Source of the DNA: a virus
UHGV virus genome: UHGV-1729168
DNA: 13,353 nucleotides
Strand: one strand, 5' to 3'
Part shown: piece after piece, positions 3,001 through 6,000 of the stretch
How the letters are laid out: the number at the start of each line of letters is the position of its first letter
Numbering within the stretch: the stretch's first letter is position 1
Position numbers: made by a program

Positions 3001-6000
3001 ATACCTGTATGGAGCACGGCCTGCCCGGACTGGGCAGAGCGCCTGAAAAAGGGGCTGTCGATTATTCCGGCTCCGATTTATCCGGACCAGGCCGCACATG
3101 CCCTGGCGATTTTTAAACAACTGCGGATTGTGGATGCACCGGGGAGCCCGACGTTCGGGGAGTCCTGTGCACAGTGGGTGTTTGACCTGGTGGCGGCTCT
3201 GTTTGGCTCCTACGATGCGCAGACCGGTGTCCGCCATATCAAGGAAGTGTTCATTCTGATACCTAAAAAAAACAGCAAGTCCACACTGGCCGCCGGGATC
3301 ATGATGACGGCGCTGTTACTGAACTGGCGGCAGGCGGCGGGTTACACGATTCTGGCCCCGACTGTGGAGGTGGCAGCCAACGCCTTCAATCCTGCCAGGG
3401 ATATGGTACGACGGGACGATGATCTGGATGACCTCTGTCAGGTGCAGACACATATCCGGACCATCACCCACCGGGTGACGGACACCACCCTGAAGGTGGT
3501 GGCAGCCGATCCGAATACGGTGTCCGGTATCAAGTCCGTGGGTACGCTGATTGATGAGTTATGGCTGTTTGGCAAACAGTACAAGGCGGAGGACATGTTA
3601 CGTGAAGCCATAGGCGGCCTTGCCTCCCGCCCGGAAGGGTTTGTGGTGTATACGACCACCCAGTCGAATGAGCCGCCTGCCGGGGTGTTCAGGCAGAAAC
3701 TGCAGTACGCCCGGGATGTGCGTGACGGCAAAATTCATGATCCGCACTTTCTGCCGGTGATTTTTGAGCATCCGCCGGAGATGGTGGAGAGCGGTGAGCA
3801 CCTGCTGATGGAAAACCTCGCCATGGTCAATCCGAATCTCGGTTATTCGGTGGATGAGGCGTTTCTGTACCGGGAGTACCGTAAAGCCCGGGAAGCCGGT
3901 GAAGAGACTTTTCGCGGTTTCATGTCAAAACACGCCAATGTGGAAATTGGTCTTGCCCTGCGTTCTGACCGCTGGGCGGGGGCGGATTTCTGGGAGCAGC
4001 AGGGCAGGCGCGTCAGCCTGGACGATATCCTGCAGCGCGCTGATGTGGTGACGGTGGGGATTGACGGCGGGGGCCTGGATGATCTGCTGGGAATGTACGT
4101 GATTGGCCGTGACAGGGAAACCCGCGAATGGCTGGGCTGGGGCCATGCCTGGGCACATGAAACCGCGGTGGCCAGACGAAAAAGTGAGGCAGCCCGTTTT
4201 CAGGATTTTGTTGCCTGTGGGGATATGACCATTGTCCGTCGGGTCGGGGATGACACGGCGGAAGTGGCGGAGTATGTGCGTCGTATTCATGAGGCTGAGT
4301 TACTGGAGCATATCGGTATTGACCCGTCAGGTGTGGGGCAGATTCTGGATTCACTGGCGGAAGCCGGGATCCCCGATGAGAGTGTGGTGGGGATAAGCCA
4401 GGGCTGGAAGCTGGGCGGTGCCATTAAAACCACCGAGCGAAAACTGGCTGAAGGGGTACTGGTGCATGGTGGCCAGCCCCTGATGGCCTGGTGCGTTGGT
4501 AATGCCCGTGTGGAGCCCAGAGGTAATGCCATTCTTATCACGAAACAGGCCAGCGGACGGGGAAAAATTGACCCGCTGATGGCGCTCTTCAATGCGGTCT
4601 CCCTGATGTCCCTGAATCCGGAGCCAAAAAAGAAAGAATATGCGGTTTTTTTCATATAACCCTGTTCACCCTGTAACCATCATGGACCGCTGCGGCGGTT
4701 TTTTTATTTTCAGGAGGCTGATGTGACTCTTAAACGGGCCTGTTCCCTGCTGACGGTGAAATCCTTCAGTGAGGATGAGCGGGTGATCACCGGGATTGCG
4801 TCAACGCCTTCTCCGGATCGGGATGGGGACATCCTGGAGCCGGAGGGCGCGGAGTTTGGCAGTGCGATCCCGTTTCTCTGGCAGCATGACCATTCCCGCC
4901 CGGTGGGGCAGTGTACGGTGCGCCGGGTCAGCGAAGGGCTGGAAATCACGGCAACACTGGCGAAGCCCGTGCCGGATATGCCATCGCAACTGGCTGCCCG
5001 GCTGGATGAGGCCTGGGCGGCCATTAAGACCGGGCTGGTCAGGGGGCTGTCCGTGGGCTTCCGTCCTCATGAATACACCTTTCTGGACGGAGGCGGACTG
5101 CATTTTCTGCGCTGGGAACTGATGGAGGTGTCTGCCGTCACCGTGCCCGCGAATGCGGAATGCACCATCCGGACCATTAAATCTTACGACCGCCAGTTTT
5201 CTGCCGCGTCCGGCAACCGGAAACCGGTGGTGAAAATCGCATCTTCTGCCGGCGCTGCGGCACAGTCAACAACCGTTTTTCATAAGGAAAAGACCATAAT
5301 GAATATTGGCGAACAGATTAAAAGTTTTGAAAACAAGCGTGCAGCGCTGGCAGCCTCCCTTGAGGAGGTCATGACCAAAGCCGCAGAGGAAGGGCGCACG
5401 CTGGATGTGGAGGAGGAAGAGCATTACGACAACACCGCAGCGGAAATCCGTCAGGTGGATGCGCACCTGAAGCGTCTGCGTGAGCTGGAAGCCGGTAAGG
5501 CTGCCACGGCACAGCCGGTGAAACAGGCCGGTAATGGGGATGTGGTGACGGTGACTTCTGCGCCGGTGATCCGTGTGGAGCAGAAACTGGATAAGGGGAT
5601 TGGTTTCGCACGTTTTGCCAAATCACTGGCTGCGGCTAAAGGTGTCCGCTCTGAAGCCCTGGAAGTGGCCCGTCGTCAGTATCCGGATGACAGTCGTCTG
5701 CATCATGTCCTGAAATCGGCAGTGGGCGCGGGGACCACCACGGATCCGCAGTGGGCAGGCAGCCTGTCTGAATATCAGGAATACGCACAGGACTTTATTG
5801 ATTACCTGCGTCCTCAGACCATTATCGGGCGATTTGGTCAGGGCGGGATCCCTGCACTTCGTCAGGTGCCGTTCAATATCCGTGTGCACGCCCAGGTGTC
5901 CGGCGGTGCTGCCGGCTGGGTGGGTGAGGGTAAGGCAAAACCCCTGACGAAGTTTGATTTTGAATCCATCACCTTCAGTCATGCGAAGGTGTCGGCCATT

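Follow-up and report, generated by a model that had tools for sequence, protein, structure and literature searches.

Conserved hairpin, T-run and ribosome-binding-site cassettes, putatively insulating terminators, at three junctions of a lambdoid Stx-type prophage late operon

The subject of this work is a recurrent sequence cassette in the virus genome UHGV-1729168, of which a stretch of 13,353 nt was analysed (hereafter, the window). The 13.4-kb window is the head-tail portion of the late operon of a lambdoid Stx-type E. coli prophage; it corresponds, at 94–96% identity, to the structural region of Stx1/Stx2-converting E. coli prophages. Three of its genes—those encoding a prohead protease-major capsid fusion, the major tail tube and the tape measure—are directly preceded by gaps of 63, 66 and 63 nt, respectively, and each gap contains a hairpin, a run of T residues and a ribosome-binding site (RBS). 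The remaining genes of the run mostly overlap by 4 nt or stand 5–9 nt apart, suggesting translational coupling, and the cassette gaps are among the few exceptions. Judging from the sequence, the best explanation (to which we assign a probability of roughly 0.55) is that each hairpin and T-run is an intrinsic (Rho-independent) terminator, co-oriented with the operon, that blocks polymerase lacking the antiterminator Q, and that each of these terminators is fused to an A/U-rich RBS region.

Three terminator-like cassettes in the late operon

A scan of the coding strand of the window for hairpins followed by T-runs returned five sites, three of which lie directly 5' of a gene start. The stems at these three sites contain 5–9 pairs (4–5 of them G-C) and enclose loops of 4–5 nt. 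On the + strand, each stem runs straight into a stretch of Ts (T7, T6 and T8, respectively), as it also does at the three sites of the relatives examined.

The first cassette (site 1) precedes the capsid gene. Its hairpin, GGACCGC-TGCG-GCGGTTT (4684–4701, + strand), pairs G4684–C4690 with G4695–T4701 by way of a 5 bp core (ACCGC/GCGGT) and two outer G-U pairs, with a folding energy of -10.3 kcal/mol (z = -3.2). Site-1 loops are mostly of the U-N-C-G type closed by C-G; such loops are unusually stable tetraloops, and are common in terminators. The hairpin runs into a T7-A-T4-C tract (4699–4711, + strand; T7 at 4699–4705), which is both a putative terminator U-tract and an A/U-rich stretch 5' of the RBS. 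The cassette ends (4712–4725, + strand) with AGGAGG at 4712–4717, a 5-nt spacer, and the GTG start codon (4723) of the protease-capsid fusion. The initiation region thus reads TTTTTTTATTTTC-AGGAGG-5 nt-GTG: a G-poor, A/U-rich tract, followed by a 6-nt AGGAGG, with the start inside the optimal window of 4–9 nt downstream. The resulting N-terminus, MTLK, is common to the window and to relatives that start with ATG. Two further observations concern this start codon. An out-of-frame ATG-TGA start-stop pair (4721–4726) overlaps the capsid GTG, and is present in 144/144 E. coli-lineage copies; relatives from other genera have a plain ATG capsid start in place of the GTG.

The second cassette (site 2) precedes the tail-tube gene. 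Its hairpin, CCCGC-CGCGT-GCGGG (10629–10643, + strand; 10629–10633 paired with 10639–10643), has a folding energy of -8.5 kcal/mol (z = -1.4), and is followed by a T6-ATTATC tract (10644–10655, + strand; T6 at 10644–10649) that is again a putative U-tract and A/U-rich stretch. AGGAGG at 10656–10661, a 4-nt spacer and the ATG start of the tail-tube gene at 10666 (together 10656–10668, + strand) complete an initiation region of the form TTTTTTATTATC-AGGAGG-4 nt-ATG, with an A/U-rich tract and a 6-nt AGGAGG, as at site 1. A second hairpin, AGGTCAC-GGT-GTGACTT (10586–10602, followed by a long T/C-rich run to 10612), lies 27 nt upstream of hairpin 2 and overlaps the stop codon of the tail-terminator gene. 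Its arms are not preserved in some close relatives (GTGTAATTTTTT); it is therefore probably non-functional, and we exclude it from the cassette.

The third cassette (site 3; 12565–12610) precedes the tape-measure gene. Here, the hairpin and T8 (AAAACCTGC-TGCG-GCAGGTTTT plus further Ts; 12565–12590, + strand; z = -2.5) are accompanied by an upstream A-tract that mirrors the T-tract. The RBS (GGAGAAAGGTGA; 12596–12610 up to and including the ATG start at 12608, + strand) is weaker than those at the other two sites: its Shine-Dalgarno sequence is only GGAG...GGTGA, versus AGGAGG before capsid and tail tube. The tape-measure start, MATLRE, is common to the window, phage HK97 and the relatives.

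The initial annotation of this DNA reported the cassettes at sites 1 and 2, and the order of hairpin, T-run, Shine-Dalgarno sequence and start codon at both is as it described. The genes downstream are indeed those for the capsid (Peptidase_S78, 3.7e-8; Phage_capsid, 9.6e-14) and the major tail protein (a tail-tube domain and a C-terminal Ig domain). The proposed terminator anatomy—a GC stem with a short loop, running straight into a T-run on the transcribed strand—is found at both sites, and is kept across genera; the leaky termination and translational enhancement suggested along with it are putative functions. A search of the window and relatives for further modules turned up the third copy at 12565–12610, and cassettes recur in other genera, HK97 and lambda. 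The module is not, as had been supposed, specific to the two most abundant virion proteins: the third cassette precedes the low-copy tape measure, and similar cassettes in HK97 and lambda precede I, J and gp4. Given this third copy and the operon layout, the hairpin and T-run mark breaks between gene blocks, rather than genes for abundant proteins. What is peculiar to capsid and tail tube is only the AGGAGG after an A/U-rich tract. The TGCG loop of site 1, to which attention had also been drawn, does recur at 12574–12577, but the loop sequence differs from one relative to another (TCCG, TGTG, TTCG, GCAT, CACG), and we reject a role for TGCG as a conserved, specific signal.

Sites 1 and 2 are alike mostly through shared design

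The pattern TTTTTTATTWTCAGGAGGC matches the window only at 4700–4718 and 10644–10662, even when 3 mismatches are allowed, and gave 0 matches in 200 shuffles (0 expected versus 2 observed; the test is post hoc, because the pattern was derived from the data). The exact motif occurs 140 times in IMG/VR, in every case at these two junctions and within one phage family. Aligned from the stem to a point just past the RBS, sites 1 and 2 agree at ~31/36 positions, and their outer stem pairs show a compensatory difference (A-T at site 1, C-G at site 2). That these are two unrelated intergenic sequences with no common function is extremely improbable. Admittedly, both are short, low-complexity sequences made up of a T-run and a Shine-Dalgarno core, and the 19-mer pattern is data-derived; yet none of the 200 shuffles gives a match, a model built from site 1 of other genera finds site 2 at E = 3e-7, and the same architecture stands at the same junctions in all relatives examined.

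The likeness of the two sites is thus real and conserved, but "near-identical", the term used initially, overstates it: over the 40 nt before the start codon, sites 1 and 2 share an identity of 0.80, as compared with 0.57–0.78 for other pairs of terminator-RBS cassettes. The likeness is also no sign of recent copying or gene conversion within the genome, since site 2 of the window resembles site 1 of every other genus (0.78–0.85) as closely as it does site 1 of its own genome (0.80), and its CAGGAG(A/G)CAG context is also found in HK97; we reject this origin. Most of the likeness is attributable to a shared design—a stem consensus (CCGC...GCGG), a T-run and an optimal RBS—with a modest excess beyond it.

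The cassettes are conserved across genera and within E. coli

Relatives were obtained by a portal-based search of species-representative genomes, giving 15 loci from Enterobacter, Kosakonia, Kluyvera, Pantoea, Phytobacter, Atlantibacter, Entomohabitans, Citrobacter and Buttiauxella, plus one short contig labelled Chitinophaga. Their portals are 60–70%, and their capsids 70–77%, identical to those of the window. The pre-capsid cassette is present in every one of the 12 loci that have a capsid homologue: (A/G)(A/G)CCCGC-N4-GCGGGTT, a T-run, an RBS and ATG. The T6 is invariant among them, and the 17–18 nt between the terL stop codon and the hairpin diverge. In the pre-capsid alignment, 100% of stem cells pair and the loops vary; one pair is changed on both sides (C-G to A-T), and four of the seven pairs never vary.

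The pre-tail-tube hairpin, T-run and GGAG are present in 5/5 loci in which a homologue of the window's tail-tube gene is detectable by BLAST, and also in 7/7 loci detected with a divergent PF16460 tail-tube gene. The stems at this site alternate between CCCGC/GCGGG, CCGCC/GGCGG and CCGGC/GCCGG. Because stem registers differ between lineages, MAFFT gives no structure-consistent alignment of site 2, and the pairing changes are described here from the hairpins of individual sequences, with no formal count. The pre-tape-measure hairpin was detected in five relatives and in HK97. Taken over the three sites, the stems are maintained by kept pairs, compensatory changes, stem switches and a paired insertion.

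A covariance model trained only on pre-capsid sites matches the other two sites of the window at full length, up to the start codon (site 2: 29.3 bits, E = 3e-7; site 3: 31.6 bits, E = 4.5e-8). The same model matches the sites before the tail tube, tape measure and gene I of HK97 (17.6–23.9 bits) and before J of lambda (22.2 bits). All significant matches lie on the + (coding) strand, and all end at a start codon.

Within E. coli-lineage prophages (144 copies of site 1, 95 of site 2 and 73 of site 3), the core stems are invariant at all three sites, and the loops and T-run length vary (6–8 for the site-1 T-run). Two stem types occur at site 3; the second, ACCGC/GCGGT, differs from the first by a paired T/A insertion. 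The RBSs are nearly invariant, with two of the 95 site-2 copies reading AGGCGG. A search of IMG/VR for divergent relatives, using the capsid alignment, yielded only E. coli copies that are 95–100% identical. Matches to at least a part of the window occur in 3993 of 5426 complete E. coli genomes, and most of it is present in 392.

The anatomy, position, conservation, strand bias and geometry of the cassettes can thus be read directly from the genomes. With regard to geometry, the end of the hairpin lies 16–23 nt from the start codon in 33/33 instances, a distance that fits just the U-tract, RBS and spacer. On the upstream side the spacing is more variable, with 1–29 nt between stop codon and hairpin: 9–29 nt where the preceding gene is terL or the tail terminator, both of which are translated normally, and as little as 1 nt where it is the T reading frame. 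T is annotated in HK97 as translated by -1 frameshifting, and in the window its frame is likewise -1 with respect to G; ribosomes rarely reach the T stop codon, as is known from the lambda G/GT frameshift. Intrinsic terminators are repressed by ribosomes halted at a stop codon close by, and full efficiency requires a distance of roughly >27 nt (PMC4824070); the observed stop-to-hairpin spacing therefore suits a working terminator.

A constant hairpin-to-start distance, alongside a variable distance to the upstream stop, could also mean that the cassettes are first and foremost translation elements, with the U-rich tract a binding or standby site for ribosomal protein S1, the hairpin a structural boundary, and the likeness to a terminator secondary. 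A/U-rich tracts 5' of an RBS do act cooperatively with AGGAGG (PMC2176067). Moreover, the cassettes are found only at genes that are not overlapped by their predecessor, and hence must load ribosomes afresh. For the E. coli rnd leader, Zhang and Deutscher reportedly found in 1992 that a hairpin resembling a terminator, with U8 behind it, is required for translation. We nonetheless consider a primarily translational role quite unlikely. The same hairpin and T-run precede low-copy genes with weak RBSs (the tape measure of the window; I and J of HK97), and an enhancer needs no abutting GC hairpin, yet the adjacency of hairpin and T-run is universal. Furthermore, removing or disrupting the hairpin in silico neither improves nor worsens RBS accessibility: when the hairpin is deleted, or its 5' arm complemented, the energy for opening positions -14 to +5 is essentially the same (9.5 versus 9.1, and 10.4 versus 9.0 kcal/mol). 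On the same grounds, the idea that the hairpin is an insulator that frees the RBS is unsupported.

Comparable elements in HK97, lambda and other systems

The class of element to which the cassettes belong is already annotated in HK97 and has been discussed for lambdoid late operons; the cassettes are real and conserved, and the concept is not new. The HK97 record (GenBank NC_002167; Juhala et al. 2000) lists a "terminator, putative" at 6692–6719, in the gap between the tail-terminator and major tail subunit genes, and another at 8398–8422, between the gp15 moron (morons being promoter-gene-terminator units) and the tape measure. Both end 12–13 nt before the next start codon, and both match the pre-capsid model (23.9 and 22.2 bits, respectively). 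Together with homologous flanking genes and matching start contexts (ATGTCTGCA... and ATGGCTACG..., with an MSAL start at site 2), this makes them orthologous to sites 2 and 3. Their RBSs are weaker than those of the window (GGAGA, GGGTGA). Five more putative terminators are listed among the HK97 structural genes. HK97 differs in the order of its head genes (portal, protease, capsid), with no such element directly before the capsid gene and instead one before the protease and one after the capsid; owing to this difference in order, site 1 has no HK97 orthologue.

In lambda, GGCCGC-CTGT-GCGGC plus T7 lies ~20 nt before the major capsid gene E, and ACCGCC-TGCG-GGCGGT plus a T-rich tract lies before J. 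Both are co-oriented with the Q-antiterminated late operon, as we propose for the window. Lambda differs in that it has no cassette before V or H, where genes abut, and in that the E start lacks a strong Shine-Dalgarno sequence.

Several intrinsic terminators within one long antiterminated operon are also known from two further systems. In the late operon of the P22-like phage L, such intra-operon terminators of lambdoid phages have been proposed either to terminate partially or to block spurious transcription that is not antiterminated (PMC8022706); for the antiterminated conAn conjugation operon of pLS20, the blocking of spurious transcription has RNA-seq support (PMC8191782). Both differ from the window in that their sequences are unrelated, they use other antitermination factors, and no systematic fusion of terminator and RBS has been described. 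The initiation regions of sites 1 and 2, in turn, resemble A/U-rich (S1-dependent) enhancers, in which a G-poor, U-rich tract lies directly 5' of a 6-nt AGGAGG (PMC2176067); these enhancers differ in being located in 5' leaders downstream of a promoter rather than inside an operon, and in not being conserved as terminators.

Probable insulating terminators as the best explanation

From the anatomy of the cassettes we infer termination, read-through by Q-modified polymerase and translational enhancement, as follows. In the lysogen, or whenever a polymerase has not started at the late promoter and acquired Q, transcription would be halted before the next structural block; the sources of such transcription may include moron promoters, spurious promoters and read-in. 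During lytic growth, Q-modified polymerase would read through the cassettes (the gene for Q, the late regulator, lies upstream of the same late operon in a close relative, the Sakai prophage Sp12). Since no extra bases separate the T-run from the RBS region, the T-run could double as terminator tail and as an A/U-rich stretch just 5' of the RBS. At capsid and tail tube, this stretch and the optimal 6-nt AGGAGG would be expected to give very efficient de novo initiation, with the tape-measure RBS being weaker. AGGAGG is the most efficient RBS at 37 °C, and in cooperation with an upstream A/U-rich enhancer gives the highest translation in E. coli (PMC2176067).

Several points weigh against insulating terminators. 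The stems are short, and that of site 2 consists of only 5 bp of G-C (-8.5 kcal/mol, z = -1.4). The covariation support at site 1 is thin, with a single two-sided pair and four of seven pairs invariant. No convincing promoter was found upstream of sites 1 and 2 against which terminators would guard. The fixed distance from hairpin to start could equally be explained by selection on translation. Finally, that Q-modified polymerase ignores terminators is general knowledge of lambda Q, and does not come from data on this phage.

The hairpins could instead act at the RNA level during lytic growth, as partial attenuators and/or protective 3'-end hairpins that split the late transcript into parts of differing abundance or stability (terS-terL; capsid to tail completion; tail tube-G-T; tape measure onward) and thereby determine virion protein ratios. 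For phage L, partial termination has been put forward as one of two hypotheses (PMC8022706). The hairpins of the window do lie exactly at the borders of gene blocks with very different protein demand; the one after tail tube-G-T, before the low-copy tape measure, would suit a step-down in expression, and the capsid gene has another conserved hairpin behind it, which is also seen in lambda and HK97. Attenuation would, however, be counterproductive at two of the three hairpins, which lie directly upstream of the most highly needed genes, and a stabilizing hairpin needs no T-run, yet a T-run is present in every instance. The ratios of lambda late proteins were reportedly ascribed by Sampson et al. 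in 1988 to translation initiation, not mRNA level. Overall, we regard attenuation or transcript protection as unlikely.

The terminators could also persist not through any need of the phage, but as footprints or docking joints of moron traffic. This possibility arises from an open reading frame (ORF) of 137 aa (12131–12544, + strand) that lies just upstream of hairpin 3, between chaperone gene T and the tape measure, in the position of the HK97 gp15 moron. The ORF is variable, being absent from the otherwise collinear relative Stx2a_WGPS2. It has no Pfam match, and belongs to phrog_6823, in which no function is assigned. Of the hallmarks of a moron, presence/absence among relatives was seen, and no clear promoter was found. 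Insertions in two relatives suggest that accessory genes dock at terminator cassettes: homologous 176-aa KilA-N ORFs lie directly after the site-2 hairpin of one locus (L122) and the site-3 hairpin of another (L128). In the former, an Enterobacter prophage (8800–9611), the ORF follows the pre-tail-tube T-run and a second hairpin follows the insert; in the latter, an Entomohabitans prophage (10420–11350), it follows the pre-tape-measure T-run, and a lipoprotein-like ORF comes next. The two ORFs have a common upstream segment containing TATAAT. Nevertheless, it is very unlikely that moron traffic accounts for the cassettes. Hairpins at all three sites are also found in genomes without a moron there: hairpin 3 is present with or without the 137-aa ORF, including in relatives that lack it, and is hence not moron-borne, and no gene is inserted at sites 1 and 2 of the window. 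At site 1, no moron was seen among 14 compared genomes or 144 population copies. In addition, the positions of the hairpins are kept across genera while the surrounding spacer is not, which argues for purifying selection on the hairpins themselves.

A more far-reaching version of the insulating-terminator reading, which we offer as speculation and think rather unlikely, is that terminator and RBS form a single selected, geometry-constrained unit, the standard joint of lambdoid late operons. The U-tract would then be both terminator tail and S1-dependent enhancer, and the near-consensus hairpins (CCGC-N4-GCGG-T6) would provide short-homology joints for the entry and exit of morons and for their movement between sites.

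Regulatory RNAs were considered as well. A scan against Rfam 15 gave no match at E <= 1 for 4680–4725 and 10620–10668, and at 12560–12610 only a match to rsmX that overlaps site 3 and falls below threshold (25 bits, gathering score 56; E = 0.29); we take it to be chance. The Sakai prophage small RNA (sRNA) HnrS/EcOnc10-12 was set aside: it is encoded on the other strand, in the interval from the spanin gene to the HNH gene, and this segment has no match in the window. The anti-sRNAs of Tree et al. were likewise set aside, as they lie near the late promoter, outside this region.

Gene order and further features of the window

The order of genes, all on the + strand, was taken from the annotated relative Stx2a_WGPS2 (NC_049941) and from Pfam. 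The terminase genes terS (2438–3001) and terL (2998–4659) are followed by the protease-capsid fusion (645 aa; 4723–6660), annotated as major capsid protein in NC_049941; a conserved small ORF (73 aa, phrog_829; 6705–6926); the portal gene (6872–8236); head-tail joining genes (up to 10258); the tail terminator, or tail completion, gene (10255–10599); the major tail tube gene (238 aa; 10666–11382), annotated in relatives as major tail subunit; the genes for chaperones G and T (11388–12067); the 137-aa ORF; and the tape-measure gene (from 12608).

The junction between the capsid gene and the 73-aa ORF has a different layout from the three cassettes. The capsid stop codon (6658–6660) is followed by AGGAGG (6669–6674), a 9-bp hairpin (ACGGGAGGC-GTGC-GCCTCCCGT, 6675–6696) with no T-run, 8 nt, and the ATG of the ORF (6705). 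The distance from RBS to start is 30 nt in linear form, and ~8 nt if the hairpin folds. As folding would bring AGGAGG to ~8 nt from the ATG, this is a candidate hairpin-bridged (split) RBS. The layout (GGAGG, a hairpin, 7–9 nt, ATG) is present in 12/12 relatives from other genera, with a different stem (GGCGGGG/CCCCGCC), and HK97 has it as well, between gp5 and gp6, with no annotation for the hairpin other than that of a putative terminator.

The portal region consists of two ORFs (454 and 299 aa) that overlap by 4 nt (6872–9132). In the annotation of Sakai Sp12, one 859-aa "portal" covers both. The second ORF is longer in Stx2a_WGPS2 (407 aa), such that the 299-aa ORF of the window is short by ~108 aa; it has a weak match to a carbohydrate-binding module, and may encode a decoration or fibre-like protein rather than a portal. 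Right at the beginning of the window, 5' of the lysis/terminase region, a hairpin (AACCACG-AATC-TGTGGTT, 53–70) is followed by a T-run on the + strand, and scores as a hairpin with T-run on the - strand too.

Implications

The module is widespread in E. coli, and occurs in Stx-converting prophages. The cassettes indicate where translation truly begins de novo and how the operon is divided into blocks, and can thus serve as an aid to annotation; they also flag places where accessory genes (morons) tend to sit, and are compact, natural parts combining a terminator with a strong RBS. The conserved set of three sites provides a convenient, widely distributed system for testing the role of intra-operon terminators. 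Should they indeed be insulators, the cassettes would help to silence the highly translatable capsid and tail genes in lysogens, and the expression of structural genes would be strictly dependent on Q.

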